Assembly (NCBI GenBank): GCA_963668695.2
Contig: CAXXLQ010000004.1
Span: 1,440,001 to 1,504,000, forward strand
Length of the DNA: 64,000 nucleotides
Source: Vicinamibacteria bacterium
Lineage (GTDB): Bacteria > Acidobacteriota > Vicinamibacteria > Marinacidobacterales > Marinacidobacteraceae
Direction of reading: 5' to 3'
Both the position numbers and the translations under genes were made by a program. This document shows, piece by piece, positions 1 to 40,613 of this stretch. How positions within the stretch are numbered: position 1 is the stretch's first letter; every line of letters begins with the position of its first letter. The notes under the pieces are model-generated. The model was given only the letters and a program-made list of their open reading frames with translations, searched no databases and had not been told where the DNA came from.

Positions 1-234
1 ACTGGGCCTCACCGGCCTCGGCGCTCACGTGGGTTCCACCACCGGCTGTTCACCGCGTCGCTTCGCGCCGCTCATCGTTGCGTTTCGGTCGGAATACACC
101 CGGGCCAGTTCTCCCGGTGGGGGCTCCTCCCTCGCGCGCCTTGTCAGCCGGGCCCCCACCGGGAGGACTGGCCCCACCGGGAGAACTGGGCCTCGCCGCT
201 CTCGGCGCTCACCCGGGTTCCACCACCGGCTGTT
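1..234. mobile_element. MITE-like repeat family 1, copy 1 (truncated by the window start, partly tandem-duplicated)
   Basis: Same backbone as the other copies (cgttgcgtttcggtcg-aatac...gcgccttgtcagcc...gggttccaccaccggctg); three full 17-nt modules. Confidence 0.8.
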
Positions 235-295
235 GCGTCGCCGGTGCTCGATACCGCCGGTCCCTGGCTCGTTTACAGGCTGCTAGGCTTCTGCC

Positions 296-904
296 ATGCC
301 TCTTCCGCCGCCCGCTCCAGCCATCCGCATCCGGGCCGAGCCGCGCGACAATTCCACCTGCCGTTTTGTGATGGACCGCCCGGTCCTTCCCGGCGGCTCG
401 GTCTATTTCGATTCCCCTGCCGATGCCATTCGTTCGCCGATGGCGCGGGAGATTCTTGGGATTCCCGGGGTTTCGGGCGTTGTGATCCAGGAGAACCTGA
501 TTACGGTCACTGCCGAAACCGAGGGCAATTGGATGCCCGTCGCCCGCGAGGTCGGAAAAAGGATCCGGAGCGTTCTCGAAGGTCAGGACCTGGCCGTGGA
601 CCCCACTGTGCTTGAGAACCTTCCGGCGCCGGAGGCCATCCGGGACCGGGTTGAGGCGGTGCTGCGGGAGGAAATCAACCCGGCCGTAGCCTCACATGGC
701 GGCTACATCGATCTGGTGGGCGTCGAACAGAACCAGGTCTTCCTTCGCATGGGAGGAGGCTGCCAGGGATGCGGGATGGCTACCGCCACCCTGCGCCAGG
801 GAGTCGAAAAGATTCTGCGCCGGGCGGTTCCGGAGATTGGCGCCATCCTGGACACTACCGACCACGCTGCCGGAACGAACCCGTACTACGAAGCGGCGCG
901 GTAG
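296..904 (+). CDS. nfuA: NifU/Nfu-type Fe-S cluster carrier (Nfu N-terminal domain + NifU C-terminal domain)
   Basis: INPAVASHGG...MGGGCQGC...DTTDH motifs typical of NfuA. Confidence 0.85.
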   Translation: MPLPPPAPAIRIRAEPRDNSTCRFVMDRPVLPGGSVYFDSPADAIRSPMAREILGIPGVSGVVIQENLITVTAETEGNWMPVAREVGKRIRSVLEGQDLAVDPTVLENLPAPEAIRDRVEAVLREEINPAVASHGGYIDLVGVEQNQVFLRMGGGCQGCGMATATLRQGVEKILRRAVPEIGAILDTTDHAAGTNPYYEAAR

Positions 905-953
905 GAAACCCCGCGTTCCGTCTGTGGGCGGGCGCCGGGACGAGAATCCCACC

Positions 954-3233
954 GTGACTCCCCGAATACGACCTGCGGTTCGCGCGGATCACCGCCGGTT
1001 GCACGCAGGAAGCGCACTCCTTCTATGCACTCTGGGGTTATCCGCTGTGTCTGAGGGCGGCCCTCTCCGATTCGGGCAGCAGCGCAACCGGCAAGAAAGG
1101 GAGCAGCCTCCGGTGGCCTGGAGCCACGACCCACCGCCCGCGGGGACCATGATCACGCGCGCGGAGCACGTCACTCGTGAGGGTTCGCGGGTCGTGCTTG
1201 ACGGCTATGCCCAGGTGGCCTACGCAGGACTTCGGATCCAGGCCGACCGCATCGAGATCGACGAGGAAGAACTGCGGGTTCGGGCGGAAGGCAACGTCGT
1301 ATTCGAACGCCGCGACGAAAAGGTGGTGGCGGAATCCATGGAGGGAAGCCTCGCAGACGGCACCGCGATCTTTCGCAATGCCCGGGGGATCCTGGGGCAG
1401 GACTTTCACTTCGTCGCCGAGACTCTCGAAGAGCTGGAAGACGGAGCGTTCGCGATCGAACGGGGAGCGTTCACCACCTGCGCCCAGCCGAATCCCCGCT
1501 GGAACTTCACCGCCAGCCGCGCCGTCGTACGGCCCCAAAAACACGTCTGGTTGCGCAACGTGTCGTTCCGCGTCAAGAACGTGCCGGTGACCTATTTCCC
1601 GGTGCTCTATTACCCCCTCGAGGAAGACGGCCGGCAGACCGGTCTTCTCATTCCGCGCTACAGCCGTTCCGACCTCCGGGGCCACCTCATCAGCCAGGGG
1701 TTTTACTGGGCCCTCAACCGCTCGATGGACGCGACATTCAGCGTGGACCATTTCACGGTGTCCGGAACCGGTCTCGGCATGGACTACCGCTACCGCGGGG
1801 ACAGCGGTTCCCGCGGCGAGGCGGAGGGGTTCATCATCAACGACAAGACCACCGAAAACCGCGAGTACTCGCTCAGCTTCAACGTGGCGCAGCGCCTGCC
1901 GGCCCGGTTCCGGCTGAGCGCGGCCGGCGACATGTTCTCCAGTTTCGACTTCAGCCGGCGCTTCCAGGATTCTTTTTCGCGTTCCACGCGCCGGTACCAG
2001 CGGGCCAAAGTCGACCTGAACGGTCAGCTCTTCGGCCACCGTCTCAAGTTCAAGATCGACCGCAAGGACACGCAGTATTCGACGAGGAATAGCCGCCGCC
2101 AGACGATGCCGCAGCTTTCGATTAGGCGGCGCAGCCTGAATCTGCTGGGCAACTTCGTGCAGCTTGGCTACGAAGCCGACTACGTGCGGGTCGGCCGGTC
2201 GCGCCGGGACGACTTCGAGGAATGGAACCGGCTCTTCGTCGGACCCACTCTCGGGATTTCGATGCCGGAAGTGCCGTTCCTCGAACTGCGCGCCGAAGTT
2301 GACGCGGGGTACCTGCGGTACGGCGGATCGAAGGACCCCGAGACCGACGAGTTCAATCCGGAGCTGGGATTGTCGCGGCGGTTCTACGGAACCACCGTGC
2401 AGATGGCCGGACCCAAGCTGGAACGGATCTTCGAAACCCCCGGGGGCTTCTACGCCGCCCGCTACAAGCACCTCGTCGAGCCCGAGGCGTCCTGGGACTA
2501 CCGCAAGAGCGACGACAAGTTCGATCTGGTGAATCGTTTCGACCGCTACGACAGCTCGGCGCAGGACAACCAGATCAGCTTTGGCCTGGTGAACCGTTTG
2601 CTGGCGAAGCGCTACCGGGACGGAGTCGAGGAGTCGTCGGCGACGGATGTCATCACCTGGCGCATTCAGCAGACGTGGTACTTCGATCCGACTTCCGGGT
2701 CGTTCGATTCCCGTTACGTTTCCTCCTCGTTCGAGGACAGCGAGGTGGAGGTGCGGAAGTCCCCGATCCGCTCGGACTTCCGCTTCACTCCGGACCAGAG
2801 CGTGAATGGCGACTGGACCATGGAGTGGGACCCGGACGAACGGCTGTTCACCTCGATTCGGGCAGGCGTCCGGGTTGGTGGCCGTCTGTCGAACCGCCGG
2901 TTCAACTTCAACTGGTCCCGCCGTGCCCGCCGGATTGGCGGCGAGGACAGCGAAGAGGTGAGGGTGAAGAGCTATCTCCGGGCCGGAACCGACTTCTTCC
3001 CCACCGAGGTGATTCGTACCGGCCTCGACATCAACTACGACATCACCGAGCGGCGCATGTCCAACATTCGCCTGCGCGCCGATTTCCTGCTCCAGTGCTG
3101 CGGGCTGAACGTCGAATGGATCCGCTACAACCTCACGCGCCGGAACGAGAACATCTTCCACTTCGGCATCACGCTGGGCGGGATCACGAGTTTCGGGTTC
3201 GGGACCGGCGGCGCTAACGACCGCTACTATTGA
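954..3233 (+). CDS. lptD: LPS-assembly outer-membrane protein LptD (start uncertain, GTG 954 chosen)
   Basis: N-terminal OstA-like jellyroll (IQADRIE, FTTCAQPNPRW), RQTGLLIP, FYWALNRSMDAT, C-terminal beta-barrel with LQCCG. Confidence 0.85.
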   Translation: MTPRIRPAVRADHRRLHAGSALLLCTLGLSAVSEGGPLRFGQQRNRQEREQPPVAWSHDPPPAGTMITRAEHVTREGSRVVLDGYAQVAYAGLRIQADRIEIDEEELRVRAEGNVVFERRDEKVVAESMEGSLADGTAIFRNARGILGQDFHFVAETLEELEDGAFAIERGAFTTCAQPNPRWNFTASRAVVRPQKHVWLRNVSFRVKNVPVTYFPVLYYPLEEDGRQTGLLIPRYSRSDLRGHLISQGFYWALNRSMDATFSVDHFTVSGTGLGMDYRYRGDSGSRGEAEGFIINDKTTENREYSLSFNVAQRLPARFRLSAAGDMFSSFDFSRRFQDSFSRSTRRYQRAKVDLNGQLFGHRLKFKIDRKDTQYSTRNSRRQTMPQLSIRRRSLNLLGNFVQLGYEADYVRVGRSRRDDFEEWNRLFVGPTLGISMPEVPFLELRAEVDAGYLRYGGSKDPETDEFNPELGLSRRFYGTTVQMAGPKLERIFETPGGFYAARYKHLVEPEASWDYRKSDDKFDLVNRFDRYDSSAQDNQISFGLVNRLLAKRYRDGVEESSATDVITWRIQQTWYFDPTSGSFDSRYVSSSFEDSEVEVRKSPIRSDFRFTPDQSVNGDWTMEWDPDERLFTSIRAGVRVGGRLSNRRFNFNWSRRARRIGGEDSEEVRVKSYLRAGTDFFPTEVIRTGLDINYDITERRMSNIRLRADFLLQCCGLNVEWIRYNLTRRNENIFHFGITLGGITSFGFGTGGANDRYY

Positions 3234-3266
3234 GAAATTCGCCCTCAATCGGAGAGACATCGCCCA

Positions 3267-3476
3267 ATGAACTACTGGGTGAATGAAGACAAGCCTGACA
3301 CCAAAGTCACGGTTCACAAGGACTCGTGCCCGCACGGAGTAAACCTGCCCAAGCAACCCAAGGATGGTTGCTGGCACGGACCCTTCGACACGAAGGAGGA
3401 GGCGACATCGGTGGCAAGGGCGATCGGTCTCAACTATCACGAATGCAAGAAGTGCTTCGGCCTACCAAAGCGATAA
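3267..3476 (+). CDS. Small Cys/His-rich hypothetical protein, possibly metal-binding
   Basis: GGAGA ribosome-binding site at 3251; HxxxC...WHGPF...CxxC; GC visibly lower than flanking genes. Confidence 0.65.
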   Translation: MNYWVNEDKPDTKVTVHKDSCPHGVNLPKQPKDGCWHGPFDTKEEATSVARAIGLNYHECKKCFGLPKR

Positions 3477-3525
3477 ACGGAAGCCGCGTGAGAACGAGGG
3501 CGGCGGACAGCGCGGAGGCGCGTTC

Positions 3526-4236
3526 TTGCTCCTTCTCCTGATCCTGAACGCGGCCCTCGCGCTCGCCGGTTGGCGGCTCCGAACAGTGAACGGGTCGGGA
3601 GCAATCGCGGGGTTCGTGGTCGGCGGCACGGTTGCTGTGAGCCTGGGCTGGTCCGGCTACCTGGTGCTGCTCCTTTACTTTGCTTTGGGCGCCTTGGCGA
3701 CGCGCATCGGTTGGAGCCGCAAGCGGGCCCTTGGAATCGCGGAAGCCCGGGGCGGCGCCCGAGGGCCCAGGCAGGTGATCGCGAATGGTGGACCGCCGGT
3801 GCTCTTCTGCACGCTGGCGGGCCTGCTGCCCGTCAGCTGGATCCTGCCGGCCGCCGCCGCGTTCGTCGGCTCGCTCGCCACCGCGGCAGCGGACACGGTG
3901 TCTTCCGAAGTCGGGAAAACCCTGGGGGGACCGGTGCGGCGGCTTCCGGATCTCTCACGAGCGCCCGTTGGCACGCCGGGCGGAATCAGCATCGCGGGTT
4001 CGGTCGCTGGGCTCTTCGCCTCTCTGGTGATCTGTGCCGTTGCCGCGGGCGGCGATCTCATTTCGCCGGCATGGCTCCTTCCCGTGGCGGGGGCTGGCTT
4101 CATCGCCGCCCTGCTCGAGGGTCTGCTCTCCCCGCTCGAGGCGCGCGGGACACTCGACAATGACGGAGTGAACGCCGTTTCCGTGCTGGCGGGCGGACTC
4201 CTGGCGTTCGGATGGGGTTGGCTGGTGTCCGGATGA
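3526..4236 (+). CDS. DUF92/TMEM19 family membrane protein
   Basis: GGAGG-7nt-TTG start; RGPRQVIANG, ATAAADTVSSEVG, GTPGGISIAGS and LDNDGVN motifs. Confidence 0.85.
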   Translation: MLLLLILNAALALAGWRLRTVNGSGAIAGFVVGGTVAVSLGWSGYLVLLLYFALGALATRIGWSRKRALGIAEARGGARGPRQVIANGGPPVLFCTLAGLLPVSWILPAAAAFVGSLATAAADTVSSEVGKTLGGPVRRLPDLSRAPVGTPGGISIAGSVAGLFASLVICAVAAGGDLISPAWLLPVAGAGFIAALLEGLLSPLEARGTLDNDGVNAVSVLAGGLLAFGWGWLVSG

Positions 4237-5150
4237 TCCGATCCGTTGCACAGCGGCTCGCGCTCTACTGCGAGTTCTCGCGGCCATTCACCCTCCTTCC
4301 GCCCCTGATCGGCTTCCTGAGCGGCAGCGCTACGGCGTTCGGAGCGCCTCCGGCACTCGAGATCGTCCCCTGGATCTATCCCGTCCTCGGAGCGGTGATG
4401 GCTGCCACTCTGAACGCGGCGAGTAACGCCCTCAACCAGATCTGCGACCTCGAGATCGACCGGATCACCAAGCCGGGCCGGCCCCTCCCTTCCGGCCGGT
4501 TGGGACTCGCCGAAGCGTGGTGGTTCACGGCCGTCTGCTGGGCCCTGGCGCTCGCCGCCGCCTGGTTCGTGAGTCCCGGTGGCCGTCGCGAGTGTTTCTT
4601 GATCGTGGTGGCGGCGAGCGTCTTCGTCTGGATGTACTCCGCGTTGCCGTTCAGGACGAAGCGGCTCGGGATGCTTGCCAACCTCACGGTCGCGATCCCC
4701 CGCGGCCTGCTGCTCAAGGTTGCCGGCTGGTCGGCTCTCAAGACGGTGCTTGACCCCGAACCCTGGTTCATCGGCCTCATCTTCGGCCTGTTCCTTTTGG
4801 GCGCCACCACGACCAAGGACTTCTCGGACATAGCCGGAGATCGCGCCGGAGGCTGCCGGACGCTTCCGGTGGTGCATGGCTCGCGGGGCGCGGCCTGGCG
4901 GATCGCACCCTTCTTCGTTTTGCCCTTCATCCTCATTCCGCTAGGCGTGCGAATGGACCTGTTGACCGGGAACCCGGTGCTGCTGGACGCGCTCGGCGCC
5001 GCATTGGTGCTCTACGGGATCTTCACGGCGTGGCTCATGCTGCGCCGTCCGGACGAACTGGCGACCGACAGCAACCATGTGTCGTGGCGCCACATGTACC
5101 TCATGATGATGGTGGCCCAACTCGGGTTCGCGGCCGCGTACGTCATGTGA
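4233..5150 (+). CDS. UbiA-superfamily prenyltransferase (DGGGP synthase/chlorophyll synthase-like)
   Basis: NQICDLEIDRITKPGRPLPSG and KDFSDIAGD Asp-rich motifs; ATGA overlap with the DUF92 gene. Confidence 0.85.
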   Translation: MIRSVAQRLALYCEFSRPFTLLPPLIGFLSGSATAFGAPPALEIVPWIYPVLGAVMAATLNAASNALNQICDLEIDRITKPGRPLPSGRLGLAEAWWFTAVCWALALAAAWFVSPGGRRECFLIVVAASVFVWMYSALPFRTKRLGMLANLTVAIPRGLLLKVAGWSALKTVLDPEPWFIGLIFGLFLLGATTTKDFSDIAGDRAGGCRTLPVVHGSRGAAWRIAPFFVLPFILIPLGVRMDLLTGNPVLLDALGAALVLYGIFTAWLMLRRPDELATDSNHVSWRHMYLMMMVAQLGFAAAYVM

Positions 5151-5188
5151 TCCGGGCGCTCTGCCTGCCCAAGGGCCGCCGCCGGTCC

Positions 5189-5194
5189 TATACT
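5189..5194 (+). promoter_or_regulatory. Putative -10 box (TATACT) of glyA
   Basis: Consensus-like hexamer in GC-rich DNA, 9 nt before GTG 5204; no Shine-Dalgarno sequence. Confidence 0.45.
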
Positions 5195-5203
5195 GGCGTT
5201 CCC

Positions 5204-6484
5204 GTGAATAGTTCCTTTGCCCGCCGCAATTTCGGTCCGAGCCTCGCCGAACGGGACCCCGAAATCGCCGCCGCCATCCGGGCCGAAGAGATCCGCCAGT
5301 CACAGGGTCTCGAACTGATCGCGTCCGAGAACTTCGCGAGCGACGCGATCATGGAAGCCACCGGCTCCGTGATGACCAACAAGTATGCGGAAGGCTACCC
5401 GGGCCGGCGCTACTACGGAGGCTGCGTCCATGTGGACGAGGCGGAACGGCTGGCCAGAAACCGCGCCAAGGAACTCTTCGGCTGCCACTACGCGAACGTC
5501 CAGCCGCACAGTGGTTCCCAGGCCAACATGGTCGCCTACCAAGCACTTCTGGAACCCGGCGACGCCTTCCTGGGCATGGCCCTCGACCAGGGGGGGCACC
5601 TGACCCACGGCCATCCGCTGAACTTCTCCGGGCAGTTCTACCGGCCGGTGGCTTATGGGGTGCGCCGGGAGGACGAGCGAATCGATCTCGACGAGTTGCA
5701 GCGGCTCGCCCGGGAGCACCGGCCGAAGATGATCATCGTGGGTGCGAGTGCGTATCCACGCCTCTACCCCAGCGAGGAAATCCGCCAGATCGCGGACGAG
5801 GTCGGGGCGAAAGTGGTCACCGACATTGCCCACGTCGCCGGCCTGATCGCCGGCCGCGCAATCCCGAATCCGGTGCCCCACTCGGACATCGTCACCGCTA
5901 CGACCCACAAAACGCTCCGGGGTCCGCGCGGGGGGCTCATCCTCTGGAATGAGAAGAGCTACGGGAAGGCCATCAACCGGATCACTTTCCCGGGGATCCA
6001 GGGCGGGCCGATGATGCACACGATCGCCGCGAAGGCGGTGTGTTTCCGGGAGGCGCTGGCACCGGCCTTCGCTGAATACGCGCACCAGATCGTCCGAAAC
6101 GCCAAGGCGCTTGCCGAAGCACTCGTGGGGTTTGGATTCCGGCTGGTTTCCGGTGGCACCGACAACCACCTGGTGCTGGTGGACGTGGGCGCCCGTGGCA
6201 CCACTGGTCGCGATGCCGAGGTGGCAATGGAGGCTGCCGGAATCACCGCGAACAAGAACACCATCCCCTTCGATCCCCAAAAGCCGATGATCGCGAGTGG
6301 TATCCGGTTGGGTACGGCGGCGCTCACCACCCGGGGAATGCGGGAAGCCGAGATGGTCGAGGTCGCGCGCCTGATGGATGCGGCGCTCCGCTCGGCGGGC
6401 GACGAGGCAGGACTCGCCCGGATCGCCGGCGAGGTTGCCGAACTTGCCTCGGGATTCCCGCTCTACGTATCACCAGCGGCGTGA
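5204..6484 (+). CDS. glyA: Serine hydroxymethyltransferase
   Basis: LELIASENF, NKYAEGYPGRRYYGG, TTHKTLRGPRGG (PLP lysine). Confidence 0.97.
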   Translation: MNSSFARRNFGPSLAERDPEIAAAIRAEEIRQSQGLELIASENFASDAIMEATGSVMTNKYAEGYPGRRYYGGCVHVDEAERLARNRAKELFGCHYANVQPHSGSQANMVAYQALLEPGDAFLGMALDQGGHLTHGHPLNFSGQFYRPVAYGVRREDERIDLDELQRLAREHRPKMIIVGASAYPRLYPSEEIRQIADEVGAKVVTDIAHVAGLIAGRAIPNPVPHSDIVTATTHKTLRGPRGGLILWNEKSYGKAINRITFPGIQGGPMMHTIAAKAVCFREALAPAFAEYAHQIVRNAKALAEALVGFGFRLVSGGTDNHLVLVDVGARGTTGRDAEVAMEAAGITANKNTIPFDPQKPMIASGIRLGTAALTTRGMREAEMVEVARLMDAALRSAGDEAGLARIAGEVAELASGFPLYVSPAA

Positions 6485-6499
6485 ACGCGGCGGGTACGA

Positions 6500-6548
6500 G
6501 GAGCGCCGGTCTTCGGACCGGCATCGCCGCCGAAGGCGGCGAAACTCC
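6500..6548. repeat. REP-like double hairpin (family 2 unit)
   Basis: gagcgccggtcttcggaccggcatcgccgccgaaggcggcgaaac resembles 21474-21516 and 45592-45635. Confidence 0.6.
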
Positions 6549-6635
6549 CACGGCTGATCACCCTGACGGTGCGCATCCCGGTGCACCAAGCGGGGCCCAA
6601 CCCCGGGAGCACCCACTCGCGCGGAGGCAGCGGGG

Positions 6636-9349: not shown

Positions 9350-9377
9350 ATCGCGGGCGCCGCCTACCGGCGGGTTC

Positions 9378-9721
9378 AACAGCCTGTGGTGAAACCCACG
9401 CGGCCCAGTTCTCCCGGTGGGGGCTCGGCCAGCGATCCATCCCGGCCAAACAACCGGTAGCGAAACCCACGCGGCGTTTGGCCGGCGATCCATCCCGGCC
9501 AAACAGCCTGTGATGAAACCCACGCGGCGTTCGGCCGGCGATCCATCCCGGCTGAACCGCGTCGCTGCGCGCCGCTCATCGTTGCGTTTCGGTCGAAATA
9601 CGCTCGGGCCAGTTCTCCCGGTGGGGGCTCCTCCCTCACGCGCCTTGTCAGCCGGACCCCCACCGGGAGAACTGGGCCTCGCCGGCCTCGGCGCTCACGC
9701 GGGTTCCACCACAGGCTGTTA
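9378..9721. mobile_element. MITE-like family 1, copy 2 (one terminal ~50-70 bp segment triplicated)
   Basis: TIRs cagcctgtggtgaaaccc / gggttccaccacaggctg; three 17-nt modules; lies between convergent yggS and lepB. Confidence 0.8.
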
Positions 9722-10400: not shown

Positions 10401-11615
10401 TCAGCTTCCGTCCGGGCAGCCTGTGGGCGAGGTGGCGTGAGCGCCGAGAGCGGTGAGGCCCAGTTCTCCCGGTGGGGGTCCGGCTGACGAGGCGCGCGAG
10501 GGAGGAGCCCCCACCGGGAGAACTGGCCCGGGTGTATTTCGACCGAAGCGCAACGCTGAGCGACGCGAAGCGGCGCGGCTCAGCCGGGATGAATCGCCGC
10601 TCGAGCCCCCACCGGGAGAACTGGGCCGCGCGACTTCGTCCATAGGCTGCCACGACGGAGTCGTCGTCTCTTCCGGGGAACCGACCACCGTGGTAACCGT
10701 CTCGGGGTCGAAGGAAACGAGGCCGATCGCAGCGTCCGGAGCCTCCGGGAAGAGCAACTGGGGAACGATTTCGTAGATGCCGGCCTCTAGCCCCGCGCAG
10801 GAAACTACGGCGAAGAGATTGGATTCGTTCACCTGGCCCAACATGCTCTCGGGGATGCGCACGGTGGCGGCGATTTCACTGATGCTCGGTTGGCAGGCCG
10901 GCTCTTCGGTTACGCCCGGCGCGAGCCAGACGGCAAGGCGCAAATCACGCGGCTCCCTCGCTTCGCCGATGACGAGGCGAACGTCCACGCGCCGGACGCT
11001 GGGCCGAAGGGCGGGGTCGAGTTCGATCTGCAGCCGCTGCCCGTAGGTCTCCCGAAGCCCCTGGGCGGATATCGGCTCGGTCGTGATCTGCGCCGTGTCG
11101 AGGAGCAGCGATTCCGGCCCTTCCACGGCGAGTTCAAGCGGGTCGATTTCGACGCTATGGATCTCGAAACCGGTCGCGGGCTGACCGAGTACGCGCGGAC
11201 TCACCCGCACGGTACTGGTCAAGGTGCGGTCAAGGCGCAAGACGACCTGGGAAGGATCCACGCGCATGACCTGCACGCCTGAAGGGGCTTCGACCGCCTC
11301 CGTTCCGAGAAACCAGGTGCGCTCGCCCGGGGCTTCTCCCGTGAGATCCAGCCGCGCACGGAGTCCCTGGAGGGGTGCGTCGCGCAGTTGGCCGGACGCC
11401 CCGCGAAGTCGCACGTCCACCTCCTGGACCGATTGGTCCACGACCTCGAGTCCGGAAGGGACGTTGACGAGCTCGAGGGGTGTCGAAACGAGAACTTCGG
11501 TGCCCTGCTCGTCCGCGACAAAGAACCAAAGACCGAAGGCGAGCCCGAGCGCCGCGATTCCCCGCAACATTTCGACCGCACGAAAGGGTCCGGGTCCGGT
11601 AACGGACTTGCTCAT
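10401..11615 (-). CDS. cdaR: CdaR/YbbR-domain regulator; last ~83 codons are repeat-derived
   Basis: N-terminal TM helix (ALGLAFGLWFFV) followed by YbbR repeats; directly downstream of cdaA with an overlap. Confidence 0.85.
   Translation of the reverse strand: MSKSVTGPGPFRAVEMLRGIAALGLAFGLWFFVADEQGTEVLVSTPLELVNVPSGLEVVDQSVQEVDVRLRGASGQLRDAPLQGLRARLDLTGEAPGERTWFLGTEAVEAPSGVQVMRVDPSQVVLRLDRTLTSTVRVSPRVLGQPATGFEIHSVEIDPLELAVEGPESLLLDTAQITTEPISAQGLRETYGQRLQIELDPALRPSVRRVDVRLVIGEAREPRDLRLAVWLAPGVTEEPACQPSISEIAATVRIPESMLGQVNESNLFAVVSCAGLEAGIYEIVPQLLFPEAPDAAIGLVSFDPETVTTVVGSPEETTTPSWQPMDEVARPSSPGGGSSGDSSRLSRAASRRSALRFGRNTPGPVLPVGAPPSRASSAGPPPGELGLTALGAHATSPTGCPDGS
10415..10652. mobile_element. MITE-like family 1, copy 3 (type II TIRs), overlapping the 3' end of cdaR
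   Basis: gcagcctgtgggcgagg...cttcgtccataggctgc; three modules. Confidence 0.8.
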
Positions 11616-12496: not shown

Positions 12497-12753
12497 TAGC
12501 AGCCGGTGGTGGAATCCGGGTGAGCGCCGAGGCCGGTGAGGCCCAGTTCTCCCGGTGGGGCCAGTTCTCCCGGTGGGGGCCCGGCTGACAAGGCGCGTGA
12601 GGGAGGAGCCCCCACCGGGAGAACTGGCCCGGGTGTATTCCGACCGAAACGCAACGATGAGCGGCGCGCAGCGACGCGGTTCAGCCGGGATGGATCGCCG
12701 GCCGAGCCCCCACCGGGAGAACTGGGCCGCGCGGGTTTCACCACAGGCTGTTA
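12497..12753. mobile_element. MITE-like family 1, copy 4
   Basis: TIRs flanked by TA; four modules (slot 1 doubled). Confidence 0.85.
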
Positions 12754-14702: not shown

Positions 14703-14887
14703 TAACAGCCTGTGGTGAAACCCACGTGAGCGCCGAGACGGGCGAGGCGCCCGGCTGACAAGGCGCGCGAGGGAGGAATACCGGGTGTATTTCGACCGAA
14801 ACGCAACGGGGAGCCCCGCGAAGCGGGGCGGTTCAGCCGGGATGCATCGCCGCTCGAACGCCGCCTGGGTTTCACCACCGGCTGTTT
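14703..14887. mobile_element. MITE-like family 1, copy 5 (module-free backbone)
   Basis: Full TIRs and backbone, no CCCACCGGGAGAACTGG module. Confidence 0.8.
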
Positions 14888-17450: not shown

Positions 17451-17728
17451 TAGCAGCTTGTGGTGAAACCCACGTGAGCGCCGAGACCGGCGAGGCGCGC
17501 GGCTGACAAGGCGCGTGAGGGAGGAGCCCCCACCGGGAGAACTGGCCCGGGTGTATTCCGACTGAAACGCAACGATGAGCGGCGCGCAGCGACGCGGTGA
17601 ACAGCCTGTGGATGGATCGCCGGCCGAGCCCCCACCGGGAGAACTGGGCCGCGTGGGTTTCATCACCGGTTGTTTGGCCGGGATGGATCGCCGGTCGAAC
17701 GCCGTGTGGGTTTTGCCACAGGCTGCTA
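17451..17728. mobile_element. MITE-like family 1, copy 6 (right end duplicated)
   Basis: CTAG at both ends; two modules. Confidence 0.8.
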
Positions 17729-21779: not shown

Positions 21780-22000
21780 TAGCGGCCTGTGGTGGAACCC
21801 GGGTGAGCGCCGAGAGCGGTGAGGCCCAGTTCTCCCGGTGGGGGTCCGCCTGACAAGGCGCGTGAGGGAGGAATACCGAGTGTATTTCGACCGAAACGCA
21901 ACGCAGAGCGCCGCAAAGCGCCAGTTCTCCCGGTGGGGGGGCGGCTCAGGCGGGATGGATCGCCGCTCGAACGCCGCGTGGGTTTCACCACAGGCTGCTA
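21780..22000. mobile_element. MITE-like family 1, copy 7
   Basis: CTAG at both ends; modules in slots 1 and 3. Confidence 0.85.
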
Positions 22001-23736: not shown

Positions 23737-24038
23737 TAACAGCCGGTGGTGGAACCCGGGTGAGCGCCGAGGCCGGGGAGGCCCAGTTCTCCCGGTGGGG
23801 GTCCGGCTGACAAGGCGCGTGAGGGAGGAATACCGGGTGTATTGCGACCGAAACGCAACGATGAGCGGCGCAAAGCGACGCGGTTCAGCCAGGATGGATC
23901 GCTGGCCGAGCCCCCACCGGGAGAACTGGGCCGCCTGGGTTTCGCCACCGGCTGTTGACAGCCGGTGGACAAAGTGGCGTGAGCGCCTGGGCCCCCAGCG
24001 GGAGAACGGGGCCGCGTGAATTCGTCCATAGGCTGCCA
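23737..24038. mobile_element. MITE-like family 1, copy 8 (23737-23957) abutted by an internally deleted type II copy (23958-24038)
   Basis: Two TIR pairs in tandem. Confidence 0.8.
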
Positions 24039-28095: not shown

Positions 28096-28314
28096 TAGCA
28101 GCCGGTGGTGGAACCCGGGTGAGCGCCGAGCCCGGTGGGGGCCCGGCTGACAAGGCGCGTGAGGGAGGAGCCCCCACCGGGAGAACTGGCCCGAGTGTAT
28201 TTCGACCGAAACGCAACGCAGAACGGAGCGAAGCGGAGTGGTTCAGCCGGGATGGATCGCCGGCCGAGCCCCCACCGGGAGAACTGGGCCGCGTGGGTTT
28301 CACCACCGGCTGCT
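28096..28314. mobile_element. MITE-like family 1, copy 9 (inside the liv operon)
   Basis: TIRs; slot 1 module partly deleted, slots 2 and 4 filled. Confidence 0.8.
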
Positions 28315-33143: not shown

Positions 33144-33152
33144 CGCGGCCCC

Positions 33153-33992: not shown

Positions 33993-34270
33993 TCGCCCGT
34001 GGGGAAGGGTCCCCCAGGCGCAGAGCGCCGGGGACGGACGCCGGCAGAGTTTCGCCACCACCGGCCAGGCGGAGCGAACTGGGGCGGTGGGACGCCAGCT
34101 TCGGGTGTCCGGCGCCGGGATGGCCGAGGCCCTGCCGGACGGAGCGCTCGCCGCCGGTTGGGTTACGATTTTCGGAGGCCTGCTCGGCGGCAGCGCTCGC
34201 CGGAGTCTCTCGGTGACGGACGTTCGGGAGCGAGGATCGGACCGGAAGGGGCCAATAGGAGAAACGGTCG

Positions 34271-35020
34271 TTGTCGGGACACAGCAAATGGCACTCGATC
34301 CGCCACAAGAAGGCGATCGTGGACGCGAAGCGCGGCAAGGCGTTCACCCGGCTCCTCAAGGAGGTCACGATGGCCGCCCGCATCGGCGGTGGCGGCCAGC
34401 AGTTCAATCCACGGCTGCGGTTGGCCGTCGACAAGGCGAAGGCCGGAAATGTCCCGCGCGACAACATTGATCGCGCGATCAAGAAGGGCACCGGCGACCT
34501 CCCCGGTTTTCGGATCGAAGAAGCGAGCTATGAGGGCTATGCCGCCGGCGGAGTGGCGGTCTTCGTTCAGGTGGCGACTGACAACCGAAACCGCACGGTC
34601 AGCGACGTTCGCCACCTGTTCTCCAAGTACGGGGGGAACCTCGGAGAAAACGGATCGGTCAACTGGATGTTCGAAAAGGCCGGACAGTTCCTGGTGCCCA
34701 GGGATCAGGCTTCCGAAGACGATCTGATTGACATCGTCCTGTCGAGCGGCGGCAGTGACGTGCTCGAGGACGGCGAGCATTGGGACCTGCGCTGCCCTCC
34801 GGAGGTCTTCGCCGCCGTAAGGGACGCGCTGGGATCGAGCGGGATCCGGTGTGACAGCGAAGAGATCGCAATGCTCGCCACTCAGCATGTACGGGTCGTC
34901 GGGGGTGAGGCCCAGCGAGTCCTCAAGCTCATGGACGCGCTTGAGGATCACGAGGACGTAATTGGCGTCTGGGCGAACTTCGACATGGACGACGAAGAGC
35001 TGGACGTCGCGGCGTCCTGA
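34271..35020 (+). CDS. yebC: YebC/PmpR family protein
   Basis: MSGHSKWHSIRHKK, YEGYAAGG, TDNRNRT. Confidence 0.96.
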   Translation: MSGHSKWHSIRHKKAIVDAKRGKAFTRLLKEVTMAARIGGGGQQFNPRLRLAVDKAKAGNVPRDNIDRAIKKGTGDLPGFRIEEASYEGYAAGGVAVFVQVATDNRNRTVSDVRHLFSKYGGNLGENGSVNWMFEKAGQFLVPRDQASEDDLIDIVLSSGGSDVLEDGEHWDLRCPPEVFAAVRDALGSSGIRCDSEEIAMLATQHVRVVGGEAQRVLKLMDALEDHEDVIGVWANFDMDDEELDVAAS

Positions 35021-35025
35021 CGGCC

Positions 35026-35624
35026 AAGCAGCCTGTGGACAAAGTTACGCGGTATTCCCGAGCCAGAAGGGATGGTGGTCGGGTGACCCCGCCCCCCGTC
35101 CCTTCCGCTCCGGGGTCTCCGCGGTGCTGGCGCCCCGCTCCGGAAGCCCGAGCCAGAAGGGATGGTGGTCGGGTGACCCCGCCCCCCGTCCCTTCCGCTC
35201 CGGGGTCTCCGCGGTGCTGGCGCCCCGCTCCGGAAGCCCGAGCCAGAAGGGATGGTGGTCGGGTGACCCCGCCCCCCGTCCCTTCCGCTCCGGGGTCTCC
35301 GCGGTGCTGGCGCCCCGCTCCGGAAGCCCGAGCCAGAAGGGATGGTGGTCGGGTGACGACGCCCCCCGTCCCTTCCGCTCCGGGGTCTCCGCGGTGCTCG
35401 CGCCCCGCTCCGGAAGCGACCGGCGATGCATCCCGGCTGAACCGTGACGCTTCGCGTCGCTCATCGTTGCGCTTCGGTCGAAATACGCTCGGGCCAGTTC
35501 TCCCGGTGGGGGCTCCTCCCTCGCGCGCCTTGTCAGCCGGGCCCCCACCGGGAGGACTGGCCCCACCGGGAGAACTGGGCCTCACCGGTCTCGGTACTCA
35601 CGTCCCCTTATCCACAGGCTGCTG
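35026..35624. mobile_element. MITE-like family 1, copy 10 (type II TIRs) carrying a 4 x 90-bp array at 35057-35416
   Basis: TIRs gcagcctgtggacaaag / ttatccacaggctgc; four near-identical 90-bp units. Confidence 0.85.
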
Positions 35625-35630
35625 ACCCTC

Positions 35631-36194
35631 TTGCATCCGTCGAAGGCCGCTGGCGAGCCCGGGATTCCGCCTGGGATTCGGCCTGGGATTCGGGTCGTCG
35701 GGCTCGATCCCGGCTCGCGGATCACCGGCTGGGGAGCGGTGGAGGAGACGGAGGGCAGGCTCCGGGTCGTGGACTACGGGACCGTGCGGTGCTCACCCCG
35801 TGCCCCGCTTGTGCTGCGCCTCCAAACGCTCCATCGGGAAATCGGGGAAGTCATCAGGCGGCTTCATCCCGATGAAGTCGCCGTGGAGACGGTCTTCAGC
35901 GCGGTGAGCGCCGGCGCGGCTCTCACCCTCGGACACGCCCGTGGCGCTGTCCTGGTGACTGCGGCGGATCTGCCCGTCGCCGAATACAGCCCGCGCTCTG
36001 TCAAACAGGCGCTTACCGGATACGGAGCGGCCGGCAAGGGTTCGGTGGCCAGCATGGTGGCCCGGCGACTCGGGATGGCCGACCCGCCGGCCTCGGAGGA
36101 CGCGGCGGACGCGCTCGCCGTCGCCATTTGCCATCTGGACGCCCGGCGGGCCAAGGCCCGTCTGGCCCGTGCCACCCAGGGACGATCCGGGTGA
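35631..36194 (+). CDS. ruvC: Holliday junction resolvase (start uncertain)
   Basis: GLDPGS, VAVE, LGHARG, EYSP, DAADALAVA. Confidence 0.93.
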   Translation: MHPSKAAGEPGIPPGIRPGIRVVGLDPGSRITGWGAVEETEGRLRVVDYGTVRCSPRAPLVLRLQTLHREIGEVIRRLHPDEVAVETVFSAVSAGAALTLGHARGAVLVTAADLPVAEYSPRSVKQALTGYGAAGKGSVASMVARRLGMADPPASEDAADALAVAICHLDARRAKARLARATQGRSG

Positions 36195-36793
36195 TCGAGC
36201 GCCTCGCCGGCAGGCTGCTTGCGACTGGCGAAGGCCATGTCGTGCTTGACGTCCATGGGATCGGTTTCCGGCTGCAGGTATCGACGGGCACCGCGTCGCG
36301 CCTTGGAGTTCCGGGAGACGAGATATCGCTCACCGTCCGGATGTTGCTGCATCGCGAGGAGACCGTTCAGCTCTACGGATTCCGAGAGACTGAAGAAGCG
36401 GTCCTCTTCGACCAGCTCCGGGGAGTCAGTGGGGTGGGCCCTTCCGTGGCCCTGAATCTCCTGTCGCTGTCCGTTCCGCGGCTGCGCCAGGCCATCCGGG
36501 ACAAGGAAGTGAAGCTGCTCCAGGCAGCTCCGGGAGTGGGCGCAAAACTGGCGCGCCGCCTCATTACGGAACTTGCGGAGGCGCTGCCGGAGGAGGAAAG
36601 CCCGGCAGCGCCGGCGGTCGAGGCGCGAGATCCGGTGCGCGAGGCGTTGGTCACCGCCTTCACCAACCTGCAGTTCACCGACCGGCGCCGCATCGAGGAA
36701 GTCGTGCAATCCGTCCGGGCCGAAAAGCCCGACGCCGACCTGCAGGATCTCTTCAAGGTGGCTCTCAGTCGCCTGTCCGCTCGAGGATCCTGA
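36191..36793 (+). CDS. ruvA: Holliday junction branch-migration protein
   Basis: VLDVHGIG, LYGF, VSGVGP, PGVGAKLARRL. Confidence 0.93.
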   Translation: MIERLAGRLLATGEGHVVLDVHGIGFRLQVSTGTASRLGVPGDEISLTVRMLLHREETVQLYGFRETEEAVLFDQLRGVSGVGPSVALNLLSLSVPRLRQAIRDKEVKLLQAAPGVGAKLARRLITELAEALPEEESPAAPAVEARDPVREALVTAFTNLQFTDRRRIEEVVQSVRAEKPDADLQDLFKVALSRLSARGS

Positions 36794-37066
36794 GCAGCCT
36801 GTGAACAAAGTCACGCGGCCCAGTTCTCCCGGTGGGGGCTCGAGCGGCGATCCATCCCGGCTGAACCGCCCCCCCACCGGGAGAACTGGCGCTTCGCTTC
36901 GCTTATCGTTGCGCTTCGGTCGAAATACACTCGGGCCAGTTCTCCCGGTGCGGGCTCCTCCCTCGCGCGCCTTGTCAGCCGGGCCCCCACCGGGAGAACT
37001 GGCCCCACCGGGAGAACTGGGCCTCGCAGCTCTCGGCGCTCACGCCACTTTGTCCACCGGCTGCCA
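36792..37066. mobile_element. MITE-like family 1, copy 11 (type II TIRs, all four slots filled, five modules)
   Basis: Fills the whole gap between the ruvA stop and the next ATG. Confidence 0.85.
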
Positions 37067-39067
37067 ATGATCGCCCCTTCGCCCGCAGATACCAACGAGT
37101 TCTGGGACCGCGCCCACGCCCGGCTGAGAGAGGCATCCACGCTGCTCGGGCGGGTCCGCCGGATCTCGACGGGTCGATTGGCAGTCGTCGTGGTAGCACT
37201 CGCTTTGGCGCTTGGAGCCGGTGAGGCCGGGCTCTGGTCCCATTGGTGGATCGTCATCCCCTGCGGGTCGTTCGTCTGGCTGGCGTTCGTGCACGAGCGC
37301 CTCTGGAACCGGGCGCGCGGAGCGCAACACATCGCCCAGCTTTACCATCGGGCTGCGCTCCGGGTAGATCGCGATACCGAAGGAGAACCGGGCAGTCCCG
37401 ACACGCCGGCGGCGGCCATCCGAAGGGGCGGGCCCCCGGCTCATCGAAATACGGTCGACGAAGACCACCGCCTGGCGCATCGGCGCCACCGGATCTCGGA
37501 GCTTGCGGACGGCCAACTGGGAGACCATCTCGACCTCTTCGGATCCGGCGGGCTCTTCGAACGGCTCGCCGATTGGCGGACCGATGCCGGTGGAGAAACG
37601 CTGGCCGGATGGTTACTCCAACCCGCTCCTCCCGCGGAGGTGGCGTCCCGTCAGATTGCCATCCGGGAGCTCGCATCCCGAATCGAGATCCAGGAAACCC
37701 TGGCGGCTTCCGGCTGCCTCGAACCGTGGCCGAACGCTCGATCATCGGTGGTGCTGGATTGGTTGGGGCCGGGCGGTGCCGCCCGCGACGGGACACGACC
37801 GCCTCCGGCGGAAGAGGGTGAGGAAGGCTCCGAACCTGCCGGCCGCAAGACGGAAGTACTGCTCGGAGGTTTGGCAGTCCTCCTCAGCGTGGTCAACATG
37901 TTGGGGTTGTTCCGGTGGATGTACGTGGGCGATGCGTCCTTGTTCCTGGGCGCGGTGGCCCTGTCCGCGGCGCTGGGTCTGTGGCTCCGAGTGCGGGTTC
38001 GGGAACTAGAAGCCGCTCTGAGCCTGATGGAATCGGAGATCGCGGGCATCCGGCAGATCGCCCTGTCGGTGACCTCGGAGGGTTTCGATTCCCCGCTTCT
38101 TAGGGCACTTTCAAAGCGGCTCGCGCGCGCCCACGCGGCGCTCGGGAAGCTCGAACGACTGCAGCTTCGGCTGCGAGCCCGTCGCAACCTGCTCTTTGCG
38201 CCGGTAGCCGCGCTCTTGTTCTGGGGGACGCATCACACCTGGGCCATCGACCGTTGGCGTCGTCGGTACCAGCGGGAGGCGCGGGAGTGGATCCGAGCCG
38301 CAGGCGAGTTCGACGCACTCCTGGCGCTGGCGCAGTACGCCATCGAGCGTCCCGGGCACGTGTTCCCCGAGTTCGACGCCCTGCCGGGGTTCGAAGCAAA
38401 AGGTCTCGGCCATCCGTTGATCCCGGAAGTCCGTCTCCAGCGCAATGACGTTCGCCTCGGACGCGGAGAAGCGGATGTGCTGATCGTCACGGGTTCCAAC
38501 ATGTCCGGCAAGAGCACTCTGCTTCGGACCATCGGCGCCAATTTCGTCCTCGCGCGCATGGGTGCGCCGGTCACCGCTACCACCCTTCGGCTCGGGCCGC
38601 TCGCACTCGGCGCCTCGATCGCCGTCCATGACTCACTCCAGGACGGGGTCTCCCGCTTCCTGGCCGAACTCCTGGCGTTGAAGGCGGTACTGGATACCGG
38701 CTCAGCCGAGGAACCGCTGGTCTTCCTGCTGGACGAAGTGCTGCAGGGGACGAACTCGGATGACCGTAGAGCGGCCGCGGCTGCCTTGCTGCGCGAACTC
38801 GGCAGGCGTTCCGCCATCGGCGTGATGACCACCCACGATCTTTCGCTCACGGAGCTGGCCCACGAACTCCCGGGTCGGGTCCGTAACATGCATTTCACCG
38901 AACGGGTGGTGGACGGCGCCATGGAGTTCGACTATCAGCTTCGGGACGGCGTCCTCGCGCGCGGCAACGCCCTCGATCTGATGCGCATGCTCAATTTGCC
39001 CGTGCCCGAGGGGGAAGTGGCCGAGTTCACTTCACTTCCTGCCCCGGGTCCGGGGAGAGAGCACTGA
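37067..39067 (+). CDS. Membrane-anchored MutS domain V-only ATPase
   Basis: N-terminal TM segments; HPLI, TGSNMSGKST, SRFLAEL, LLDEVLQGTNS, TTHD. Confidence 0.85.
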   Translation: MIAPSPADTNEFWDRAHARLREASTLLGRVRRISTGRLAVVVVALALALGAGEAGLWSHWWIVIPCGSFVWLAFVHERLWNRARGAQHIAQLYHRAALRVDRDTEGEPGSPDTPAAAIRRGGPPAHRNTVDEDHRLAHRRHRISELADGQLGDHLDLFGSGGLFERLADWRTDAGGETLAGWLLQPAPPAEVASRQIAIRELASRIEIQETLAASGCLEPWPNARSSVVLDWLGPGGAARDGTRPPPAEEGEEGSEPAGRKTEVLLGGLAVLLSVVNMLGLFRWMYVGDASLFLGAVALSAALGLWLRVRVRELEAALSLMESEIAGIRQIALSVTSEGFDSPLLRALSKRLARAHAALGKLERLQLRLRARRNLLFAPVAALLFWGTHHTWAIDRWRRRYQREAREWIRAAGEFDALLALAQYAIERPGHVFPEFDALPGFEAKGLGHPLIPEVRLQRNDVRLGRGEADVLIVTGSNMSGKSTLLRTIGANFVLARMGAPVTATTLRLGPLALGASIAVHDSLQDGVSRFLAELLALKAVLDTGSAEEPLVFLLDEVLQGTNSDDRRAAAAALLRELGRRSAIGVMTTHDLSLTELAHELPGRVRNMHFTERVVDGAMEFDYQLRDGVLARGNALDLMRMLNLPVPEGEVAEFTSLPAPGPGREH

Positions 39068-40093
39068 ATGGGTGCGCCGAAGGCTCCGCCCGGCTACCCG
39101 GACGAAGAGTTCCACCAGAGCCTGCGGCCCCGGGACTTTGGGGAGTACGTGGGCCAGGGCGCGGTGCTCGAACAACTCGAGATCAGCGTCAGCGCCGCCC
39201 GGGCCCGGGGCGAGCCCCTCGATCACGTGCTCCTGCACGGGCCTCCGGGACTTGGCAAGACGTCGCTGGCCGCGGTGCTCGCCCGGGAACTCGATGTTCC
39301 CATGCACACTTCATCAGGACCGCTCGTACCCCGTACCGGCGACATGGTCGCGCTGCTCAGCTCGCTGGCGCGCAACGAGATCCTGTTCATTGACGAGATC
39401 CATCGTCTCGCTCCCGCCGTCGCCGAAGTCCTCTACCCGGCGATGGAGGACCACTACGTGGACATCATGGTCGGCGAGAAGATGGGAGCTCACAGCCTCC
39501 GAATCGATTTGCGGCCCTTCACGCTGATTGGGGCTACTACCCGCGCCGACCTGTTGACCGGCCCCCTCCGGGATCGATTTCCGCTCGTCCACCAGCTCGA
39601 GTTTTATTCCATCGCGGAGGTGGAGAGGGTTCTGGCGCGCGCCGCGCTGGTTCTGGGGGTACACCTGGAGCCGGACGCCGGACGGGACATCGCATCCCGG
39701 GCGCGTGGAACGCCCCGGGTCGCCAACAACCTGCTGCGCCGCGTGCGGGATTACGTCGAGGTGCGCAGCGATGGAACGATTCGCCGGGATACGGCGCTCG
39801 CGCTACTCGAGATTGCCCAGGTGGACGAGGAGGGGCTGGACCGCTTCGACCGCAAGATTTTGGCGAGCCTGCTCGACAACTTTTCCGGCGGGCCGGTGGG
39901 AGTGGCCAACCTCGCCGCCACGCTCGGCATGGACAACCGAACCCTGGAAGAGGTGCATGAGCCGTATCTCATCTACCGCGGCTTCCTGAGGCGGACAGGA
40001 AAAGGACGCATGATCACCGATCGGGGCGCGCGGCATCTGAGACGCGCGGCATCGGGAACGCTCTTTCCCGGTTCGCCGGCCGTCAAACAATGA
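39068..40093 (+). CDS. ruvB: Holliday junction branch-migration ATPase
   Basis: LRPRDF, GPPGLGKT, FIDEIHRL, GATTR, RGTPR, EPYL. Confidence 0.97.
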   Translation: MGAPKAPPGYPDEEFHQSLRPRDFGEYVGQGAVLEQLEISVSAARARGEPLDHVLLHGPPGLGKTSLAAVLARELDVPMHTSSGPLVPRTGDMVALLSSLARNEILFIDEIHRLAPAVAEVLYPAMEDHYVDIMVGEKMGAHSLRIDLRPFTLIGATTRADLLTGPLRDRFPLVHQLEFYSIAEVERVLARAALVLGVHLEPDAGRDIASRARGTPRVANNLLRRVRDYVEVRSDGTIRRDTALALLEIAQVDEEGLDRFDRKILASLLDNFSGGPVGVANLAATLGMDNRTLEEVHEPYLIYRGFLRRTGKGRMITDRGARHLRRAASGTLFPGSPAVKQ

Positions 40094-40138
40094 GGGACCC
40101 CGGCGGCGGGTGACACCCCGGGTCTCCCGGACCTGATT

Positions 40139-40613
40139 TAGCAGCCTGTGGTGAAACCTGCGCGGCCCAGTTCTCCCGGTGGGGGCTCGGCCGGCGATCC
40201 ATCCCAGCCAAACAGCCTGTGATGAAACCCACGCGGCCCAGTTCTCCCGGTGGGGGCTCGGCCGGCGATCCATCCCGGCTGATCGCGTCGCGTCGCGTCG
40301 CTCATCGTTGCGTTTCGGTCGAAATACACCAGGTATTCCTCCCTCACGCGCCTTGTCAGCCGGGCCCCCACCGGGAGGACTGGCCCCACCGGGAGAACTG
40401 GGCCTTACCGGCCTCGGCGCTCACGCGGGTTCCACCACCGGCTGTTCACCGCGTCGCTGCGCGGCGCTCATCGTTGCGTTTCGGTCGAAATACACCAGGT
40501 ATTCCTCCCTCACGCGCCTTGTCAGCCGGGCCCCCACCGGGAGAACTGGCCCCACCGGGAGAACTGGGCCTCACCGGCCTCGGCGCTCACCCGGGTTCCA
40601 CTACCGGCTGCTA
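40139..40613. mobile_element. MITE-like family 1, copy 12 (terminal and core segments duplicated, six modules)
   Basis: TA-flanked TIRs; ends immediately before the queA GTG. Confidence 0.85.

Follow-up and report, generated by a model that had tools for sequence, protein, structure and literature searches.

A short cassette gained and lost in place at five fixed slots of a miniature inverted-repeat element in a sponge-associated acidobacterium

Results

Element copies in the window

The 64,000-nt stretch of the Vicinamibacteria bacterium genome analyzed here at its full length (hereafter, the window; the source genome is labeled G000) contains 10 full-length copies of a miniature inverted-repeat transposable element (MITE), together with truncated or tandem pieces of it, at 12 loci. 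A 17-nt module, CCCACCGGGAGAACTGG, resides in these copies at fixed backbone positions, which we call slots. Comparison with related species (G001, G004, and G008) and with other copies in the genome shows five slot-specific cassette polymorphisms that are precise, fast, and independent of the backbone and that change in place, and the same cassette is also found in unrelated repeats. In the window, the module has 36 matches at ≤2 mismatches (31 exact), where 100 shuffles gave an expectation of 0, and all the matches are confined to 105-40567. The terminal inverted repeat (TIR) pattern has 22 matches against 0 expected. From 40620 to 64000 there is no module and no TIR match, and the G+C content climbs there to 0.69-0.72. 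The copies are listed below. Each occupancy string gives slots 35, 42, 75, 119, and 155 in that order, and the digit 2 denotes a tandem pair.

1..232, minus strand: composite locus cut by the window start; the whole locus is parsed as 02101, and 1-48 is the end of one copy (TIR 31-48)
49-232, minus strand: truncated copy in this composite locus; modules 105-121 (−), 155-171 (+, A12G), and 173-189 (+); TIR 215-232
9380..9718, minus strand: two tandem partial right ends plus a full copy; partials at 9380-9503, one with a module at 9405-9421
9504-9718, minus strand: the full-length copy of this locus, 01100
10417..10649, plus strand: full-length, 01101, with a variant TIR; in the G001 orthologue, slot 119 is filled as well
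12500..12750, plus strand: full-length copy flanked by TA, 02101 (tandem pair at slot 42); 10101 in G001, and the sites in G004 and G008 are empty
14706..14884, plus strand: bare 179-nt backbone, 00000; 02101 in G001, 00100 in G004, and an empty site in G008
17454..17725, plus strand: full copy (17454-17672, 00101) plus an extra partial right end; 01101 in G001 and 00111 in G008
21783..21997, plus strand: full-length copy flanked by TA, 01010
23740..24034, plus strand: full copy (23740-23954, 01001) and an adjoining derivative
28099..28312, plus strand: full-length copy, 00101; the site is empty in G001 and G004
35440..35625, minus strand: truncated copy, scored as partial; modules 35494-35510 (−), 35544-35560 (+, A12G), and 35562-35578 (+)
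36795..37063, minus strand: full-length, 02111 (five modules), with a variant TIR; 00111 in G004
40142..40610, minus strand: composite locus; partial end 40142-40212 with a module at 40167-40183
40213-40444, minus strand: full copy in this composite locus, 02001
40445-40610, minus strand: truncated copy in this composite locus; tandem module pair 40533-40567

The derivative next to the copy at 23740-23954 is an internally deleted form of about 78 nt (23957-24034), which retains the left TIR, a degenerate module (23994-24010), and the right TIR, and only TG separates it from the full copy. Partial right ends, in units of about 55-70 nt that end in a TIR, are stacked in tandem beside full copies at 9380-9560, 17655-17725, and 40142-40230. 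Such arrays are numerous genome-wide, as though the ends were reiterated. At the bare copy, contigs of runs X1 and X5, which come from other samples, join 14703 to 14888/14889, and the site is therefore empty in those samples.

The original prediction, made from the letters alone, had described about 12 copies, a bare backbone of about 185 bp at 14703-14887, and roughly 35 modules at four fixed slots. Only the 10 copies counted above are full-length, and the bare copy is real, its limits being refined to those listed. The occupancies given for seven copies (01101, 02101, 00000, 00101, 01010, 01001, and 02111) are all correct, and so is the rule that the first and third of the four slots hold the module on one strand and the second and fourth on the other. 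Those four slots are 42, 75, 119, and 155. The genome has a fifth, slot 35, which is empty in every window copy.

Census of the element and the module in the genome

The G000 assembly comprises 4.10 Mb in 4 contigs with 67% G+C. It holds 1296 exact copies of the 17-mer and 1648 copies at ≤2 mismatches, and the flanks directly beside the 17-mer are conserved as gCC-17mer-(C/G)Cc. A BLAST search with the bare backbone as the query gave 960 pieces, with about 400-780-fold cover along the backbone, and the MITE copies or pieces number about 640-780. The lengths of full elements are quantized (179, 197/198, 215/216, 233/234, 251 ... nt). For the census of full-length copies, the 17-mer plus one base was excised from the genome and the search was repeated, yielding 619 full-length matches at 425 loci. 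Since the backbone is about 65% self-complementary, 187 of the 425 loci aligned on both strands, and only the better strand was retained for them. Ten mirror-symmetric slots in a first slot map were an artefact of this double alignment and were discarded.

The 1648 modules are divided into 811 in the 425 full loci, 494 in partial backbone pieces, and 343 outside backbone matches, and the module is not confined to the MITE. Crude gene calls span 66% of the chromosome but include only 176 of the modules; the family is therefore strongly intergenic. As predicted, the module is better conserved than the backbone, with 1296 of the 1648 copies exact versus a median identity of 86% between the backbones and the bare copy. 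Rfam 15 gave no match at the gathering score on either strand of the whole window, and no match to the element was found among PLSDB plasmids. A satellite of about 32 bp in this genome lacks the module.

Five slots and their alleles

The five slots, named by backbone position, are 35 (−), 42 (−), 75 (+), 119 (−), and 155 (+), which are filled at 135, 144, 190, 49, and 179 of the 425 loci, respectively, and 109 loci are bare. Minor extra slots are found at 34/35 (+), 109 (−), and 125 (−), with 7, 3, and 4 cases. Tandem modules occur at slot 42 only, as 89 doubles and one five-fold array. The unit that is present or absent is a cassette of about 20 nt, GCCCCCACCGGGAGAACTGG (GCC plus CCCACCGGGAGAACTGG), which swaps for 1-3 backbone bases with a net gain of 18 nt. 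Slot 75 always reads GAGCC-17mer-CCCGG when filled and GAATACCGG when empty, the ATA in GAATA being replaced. Slot 155 reads GAGCC-...-GCCG when filled and GAACGCCG when empty, the AC being replaced. The two states of slots 35, 42, and 119 differ by exactly +18 nt and by a single linked base in the flank. In filled copies slot 35 always has C where empty copies have T, C, or G, and at slot 42 the 18 nt are cleanly inserted, in some cases together with a linked C>T. The predicted replacement of a few backbone bases holds exactly at slots 75 and 155.

Each slot has its own alleles. At slot 42, a single module with a gACC flank is found at 47 loci, a tandem of the A12G variant and the canonical module with a gGCC flank at 46, and a tandem canonical pair at 40, whereas a single module with the gGCC flank is found at only 2. 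The A12G variant is restricted to slots 35 and 42. The dominant allele accounts for 167 of 190 filled cases at slot 75, 43 of 49 at slot 119, and 162 of 179 at slot 155. The slot alleles are common to G000, G001, G004, and G008, and what is gained at locus 29 (see below) is, in the alignment of orthologues, the standard tandem allele. These observations point to the same slot of another copy, and not to a free pool of cassettes, as the template for a filled slot.

The G001 orthologue of C4:1295844 (locus 2) has a 15-nt module remnant at slot 42, with 3 nt deleted internally, and cassettes therefore also decay through small deletions. The 5′ half of the cassette (CCCCACCGG) and the inner right TIR (CACCACCGG) are identical at 8 of 9 bases, which makes the former complementary to CCGGTGG in the left TIR. 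This likeness could be due to chance in G+C-rich DNA or could be a hint of the origin of the cassette.

Slot states of orthologous copies in sister species

The region 1.28-1.67 Mb of contig C4 in G000 is colinear with G001 (about 95-96% identity), G004 (about 92%), and G008 (about 88%). When orthologous copies are aligned, they differ by exactly 18 or 36 nt while sharing private backbone single-nucleotide polymorphisms (SNPs). In the 1.2 Mb of G001 compared, 32 pairs are full-length in both G000 and G001. Only 6 pairs have the same occupancy, 26 differ, and 55 of the 160 slots are in different states. A strict set, limited to pairs in the same orientation with a backbone identity of at least 0.95, contains 17 pairs (median backbone identity 0.978), among which 5 are identical and 21 of 85 slots differ. 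The turnover per slot is thus roughly an order of magnitude faster than the substitution per site.

The flanks of the changed slots should be noted. Mismatches 5-10 nt from a slot are equally dense beside changed (21/423) and unchanged (53/975) slots of G000 and G001, and the four-genome set gives 19/438 and 50/1083, respectively. Precise indels with unchanged flanks at orthologous copies mean that gain and loss occur in place. Both directions are seen by parsimony at loci represented in three or four species. The slot-42 pair at locus 40 is present in G000, G001, and G008 and missing only in G004, a loss. Slots 35 and 75 of locus 61 are filled only in G000, and slots 42 and 155 of locus 29, the bare copy of the window, only in G001, which are gains.

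Mosaics of this kind might also be chimeric consensus sequences, put together in assembly or polishing from the mingled reads of hundreds of near-identical copies. The genome does come from metagenomic material, according to the run labels, the assembly scores 9.3% contamination, and public short-read contigs break inside every element, as expected of repeats that are hard to assemble. However, the same five slots with the same alleles appear in four independent assemblies, of which G000, G004, and G008 consist of 4, 3, and 1 contigs. Private backbone SNPs, which read mixing would blur, are kept beside changed slots, and the states are always whole alleles, never fractional ones. An assembly artefact is therefore highly improbable as the source of the mosaics.

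Independence of the slots from descent

Of the 32 possible presence/absence patterns, 30 are seen, and correlations between slots range from 0 to 0.39. The association of a slot state with backbone columns is about 1 within 0-3 nt and falls to ≤0.2 farther out, whereas backbone SNPs retain haplotype structure among themselves (90th-percentile V 0.4-0.97). A FastTree phylogeny of the 425 backbones, from which slot-linked columns had been removed, requires at least 103, 105, 122, 33, and 115 changes at slots 35, 42, 75, 119, and 155, respectively, compared with means of 113, 118, 136, 46, and 133 for shuffled states. The tree was built on 179 columns and is poorly resolved, and its result is taken as supporting evidence only. 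Slot states are nearly independent of one another, of the backbone haplotype, and of the backbone tree.

These results bear on the simplest account, in which a few founder variants were each amplified by transposition and none changed in place. Some phylogenetic signal is indeed left, with 10-28% fewer changes on the tree than after shuffling, and slot 119 is partly tied to one sub-family. Contrarily, nearly all patterns are present, the changes on the tree are close to random, and most orthologous pairs differ. Pure descent is refuted by these three observations, and we give it next to no credence. The original prediction, that the modules reassort at fixed slots through site-directed insertion or gene conversion rather than by descent, is borne out by the near-random mapping of occupancy on the backbone-only tree, by the lack of linkage beyond 3-4 nt, and by the 18-nt indels between orthologues.

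The backbone as a TA-duplicating hairpin MITE

The backbone is non-coding, spans 179 nt between RCAGCC...GGCTGY ends, and forms a long hairpin. It is a TA-duplicating long-hairpin MITE of the IS630/Tc1-mariner-like kind. Both sides of the element are flanked by TA at 183 of the 425 loci, and one side or both at 319. Among 69 G000 loci with syntenic flanks in the compared part of G001, 32 lack the element in G001. The modal interval is 56 nt at empty sites versus 239 nt at occupied ones, corresponding to a 181-nt element plus a 2-nt duplication. Mirror columns of the left and right TIRs covary (V 0.8-0.94).

The original prediction had proposed a search for a transposase with matching ends or for a RAYT, and neither was found in G000. 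Three DDE_3 (PF13358) loci were found in this genome, none of which is bounded by MITE-type ends within 1.5 kb. The sole match near them is an adjoining MITE copy, C4:666797-667048, about 580 nt upstream of the DDE_3 domain match of one IS630-type transposase locus, which itself lacks matching ends. The Y1/RAYT transposase family (PF01797) has 0 matches in G000 (91.7% complete), while in a control search the family was present in 6 of 14 reference genomes.

The cassette in other repeats and other genomes

A second dispersed repeat of G000 consists of GGGAGTTTCGC, a variable GC hairpin, and GCGATGCCGG...CCGGCGYTCC, and it contains a small CCGG-ended palindrome, CCGGTCTGAAGACCGG. The hairpin stem varies with compensating changes. 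The repeat often forms tandem units of about 100 nt; examples are at C4:444012, C4:2578645, and C4:1646315, and none was seen in the window. About 200 copies of the palindrome were found. About 101 of them are empty, 72 carry the cassette in place of an A in the right arm, and in 27 the reverse complement of the cassette replaces the paired T of the left arm. The right-arm A and the left-arm T are one target read on either strand. Inversion of a segment of the repeat was ruled out as the origin of the two forms, because the central GA keeps its orientation. Locus 71 shows an exact 19-nt indel between orthologues in a repeat of this second family. In G018, which belongs to another genus, the cassette lies in the palindrome CCGGACTCCAGTCCGG, in both orientations, and also in 44-nt tandem units.

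All 15 genomes searched within the genus contain the exact 17-mer, as do 4 of the 6 further genera searched within the family, while for the other families of the order the tally is 0 of 16. Counts of the backbone marker and of the exact module are 642/1296 in G000, 104/6 in G010, 55/5 in G007, 52/1 in G020, and 22/221 in G018. At ≤3 mismatches, G020 has 28 modules versus 22 for a reversed control. The load of cassettes and the load of MITEs are separable across genomes. Only 21 of the 343 modules outside backbone matches have unique flanks, most still lying in a short context of the second family, and colonization of new sites is therefore rare.

This distribution speaks for a dedicated sequence-specific nuclease or recombinase that would insert and excise the cassette, with either the 17-mer or the empty target as its recognition site. 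Under this reading, the cassette itself would be a mobile element, non-autonomous and very small, comparable to the small dispersed repeats (SDRs) of Nostoc, and its slot-specific alleles would stem from the use of homologous copies in break repair. The 17-mer is kept exact across the genus and into other genera while backbones diverge, its load is decoupled from that of the MITE, and it lies in at least three unrelated repeat contexts, entering either strand of palindromic targets at the mirror base. The minor extra slots and the unchanged flanks at changed slots also fit such machinery. Against it, no candidate protein was found, Y1/RAYT being absent from the G000 search. The variant spectra are slot-specific (A12G only at slots 35 and 42, gACC only with single modules), unlike what a common free pool would give, and the rarity of unique flanks means that new sites are seldom colonized. 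We regard this explanation, the main rival of the reading preferred in the Discussion, as possible but unlikely. Slightly more doubtful still is the broader proposal that the cassette is a true mobile unit, of the smallest class of mobile DNA, moved by undiscovered machinery conserved across this family of sponge-associated Acidobacteria. The recognition site of such machinery would be the 17-mer, which is invariant, or else a short GA/N/CCGG-type target within repeats prone to form hairpins.

Folding of the cassette and the element

The 22-nt cassette alone folds at −1.4 kcal/mol (z +0.70), a stability that 153 of 200 shuffled sequences match or exceed. Opposed cassettes, on the other hand, pair in perfect helices of 17-22 bp (z −5.2 and −5.7). 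Within the complete element, the pairing partner of slot 42 is slot 155 or slot 75, and the folding energy shifts from −0.60 to about −0.70 per base. Cassettes in opposite orientation at these slots would thereby add helices of 17-22 bp and re-register the long hairpin, which fits the rewired stem-loops envisaged in the original prediction. Co-occupancy reaches a phi of 0.05-0.28 for complementary pairs, not exceeding the 0.39 of the same-strand pair 75/155, and there is consequently no sign of selection for pairing. In crude GC3-based gene calls, the bare-copy strand is opposite to the transcription of tandem flanking genes in 58 cases and the same in 23. The bare-copy strand folds 5-30 kcal/mol better as RNA than its complement does.

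The module may instead be a putative functional site, for protein binding or for RNA pairing that tunes the hairpin, with locus-wise selection acting on ordinary recombination to make the mosaic. The far better conservation of the 17-mer than of the backbone, within and across genera, agrees with this proposal, as do the long perfect helices of opposed modules, which shift the register of the fold, and the orientation bias relative to flanking genes. However, the phi values do not favor complementary pairs, a quarter or so of the copies (the 109 of 425 above) are bare, and some genomes have many bare MITEs. Selection alone also does not explain precise and repeated 18-nt changes. We consider a functional site an improbable explanation of the mosaic.

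Discussion

Mechanism of the slot changes

The reading that we prefer, though we hold it to be about evenly poised between right and wrong, is templated copying, over very short patches, from a slot of one copy to the equivalent slot of another, atop a rarer SDR-like seeding of new targets. What is transferred would be the filled or empty allele of that slot. Such copying may be a loop-focused gene conversion or a template switch at hairpin-prone repeats, with patches that take in less than about 5 nt of flank. For the cassette to enter the five slots of the MITE and the unrelated CCGG-ended palindromic repeats in the first place, on either strand, SDR-like insertion into short GA/N/CCGG-like targets would have been needed. 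A template switch within a single element, across its hairpin, was discounted as the main source, because the slots are not mirror partners and bare copies gain cassettes.

Several points weigh against short-patch copying between slots. No enzyme or template intermediate was identified, no candidate enzyme being found in G000. The flank involved at slot 155 (<5 nt) is far shorter than the tracts of ordinary bacterial gene conversion. A slight increase in nearby mismatches, which is not significant, accompanies the changed state at slot 155 (8/87 versus 9/165) and slot 42 (8/132 versus 6/156), and changes are clustered next to slot 155 at locus 29, so that some of the slot changes may be ordinary gene conversion. 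There is almost no polymorphism in the flanks of slots 35, 42, and 75, where longer tracts would go unseen; the tract length is therefore truly constrained only at slots 155 and 119. Among the 32 orthologous pairs, the 15 outside the strict set may be independent insertions or replaced copies. The backbone tree, with its 179 columns, is poorly resolved, and public short-read contigs, which break inside the elements, neither confirm nor refute the slot states.

Comparison with known repeat systems

The original prediction knew of no named element with a comparable architecture. Near analogues are in print, and in our comparison the closest in behavior are the SDR modules of Nostoc, followed by boxB of the BOX elements. 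The SDRs of Nostoc punctiforme and its relatives were reportedly described in 2008 by Elhai et al. (Genome Res 18:1484), with a size of about 20-27 nt, hairpin-forming members, and nesting in MITEs. Both systems have modules of about 20 nt that are highly iterated, lie inside other repeats, and are precisely inserted. A citing work characterizes SDRs as some 20 bp long and possibly mobile (PMC2884548). In size and iteration the present unit is similar (17-nt core, cassette of about 20 nt, net 18 nt, 1648 copies at ≤2 mismatches). Precise insertion with evidence of mobility at orthologous sites, which citing accounts associate with SDRs, is likewise found here as indels in both the MITE and the palindromic repeat. 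The two differ in that SDRs belong to cyanobacteria and the present cassette to Acidobacteria. Their sequences are presumably unrelated, and the resemblance proposed is one of behavior only. Here, moreover, one cassette uses five fixed slots of a single MITE in set orientations, and slot alleles and turnover between sister species were measured.

The boxB unit of BOX elements is about 45 nt long. BOX elements of Streptococcus pneumoniae (boxA-boxB(n)-boxC) are, like the present elements, modular MITE-like repeats with TIRs. Strains differ at orthologous BOX loci in how many internal modules they carry, and these modules fold for the most part separately from the rest (PMC3049150). Variation in module number between orthologous loci is found here in 26 of the 32 G000/G001 pairs. 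However, BOX has one tandem boxB array at a single position, whereas the present element has five separate slots on both strands that are mostly single-copy, and the 18-nt unit also resides in other repeat families.

The BIME/REP (palindromic unit, PU) repeats of Escherichia coli and the REPIN-RAYT system resemble the element as intergenic mosaics of short modules in alternating orientation. Inverted REP pairs are described as forming hairpins, the basis of the REPIN concept (PMC3116915), and PUs as frequently grouped in clusters (PMC2884548). REPs are palindromic and depend on RAYT, whereas the cassette alone does not fold. Membership in REP/REPIN-RAYT was thus rejected on two counts, the lack of a palindromic unit (z +0.70) and of a cognate RAYT (0 matches in G000).

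RUP and the Correia/NEMIS MITEs share with the backbone the TA duplication, the TIRs, the long hairpin, the intergenic location, and the insertion polymorphism between strains. ERIC copies with inserts at fixed internal sites and the length variants of Correia are precedents for internal variants. These variants are single larger indels of about 50-70 nt that define sub-families. Neither ERIC nor Correia is known to have a reassorting cassette of about 20 nt at five slots. In the literature searched, we found no paper on internal insertions of ERIC and no description of elements such as the present ones in Acidobacteria.

Significance

How repeats of about 20 bases spread has been a puzzle since the cyanobacterial SDRs were described, and clean before/after comparisons have been too few. 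The present system offers hundreds of homologous targets, five defined slots with discrete alleles, and sister species whose genomes are complete or nearly so. Precise gains and losses can be read from these genomes directly, by the dozen, and cassette-rich and cassette-poor genomes form natural contrasts. The mechanism is therefore testable by comparative genomics and long-read population data. If the cassette is a true mobile unit, the MITE-rich but nearly cassette-free genomes G010, G007, and G020 would represent natural losses of function, from which the responsible gene could be found.

The slots have further consequences. They are hypervariable strain markers, and they are a hazard for assembly and polishing. 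They also re-register long hairpins beside genes and may thereby affect transcript ends. In this sponge-associated bacterium, they provide a rare, well-documented case of very small DNA modules acting as independent units.

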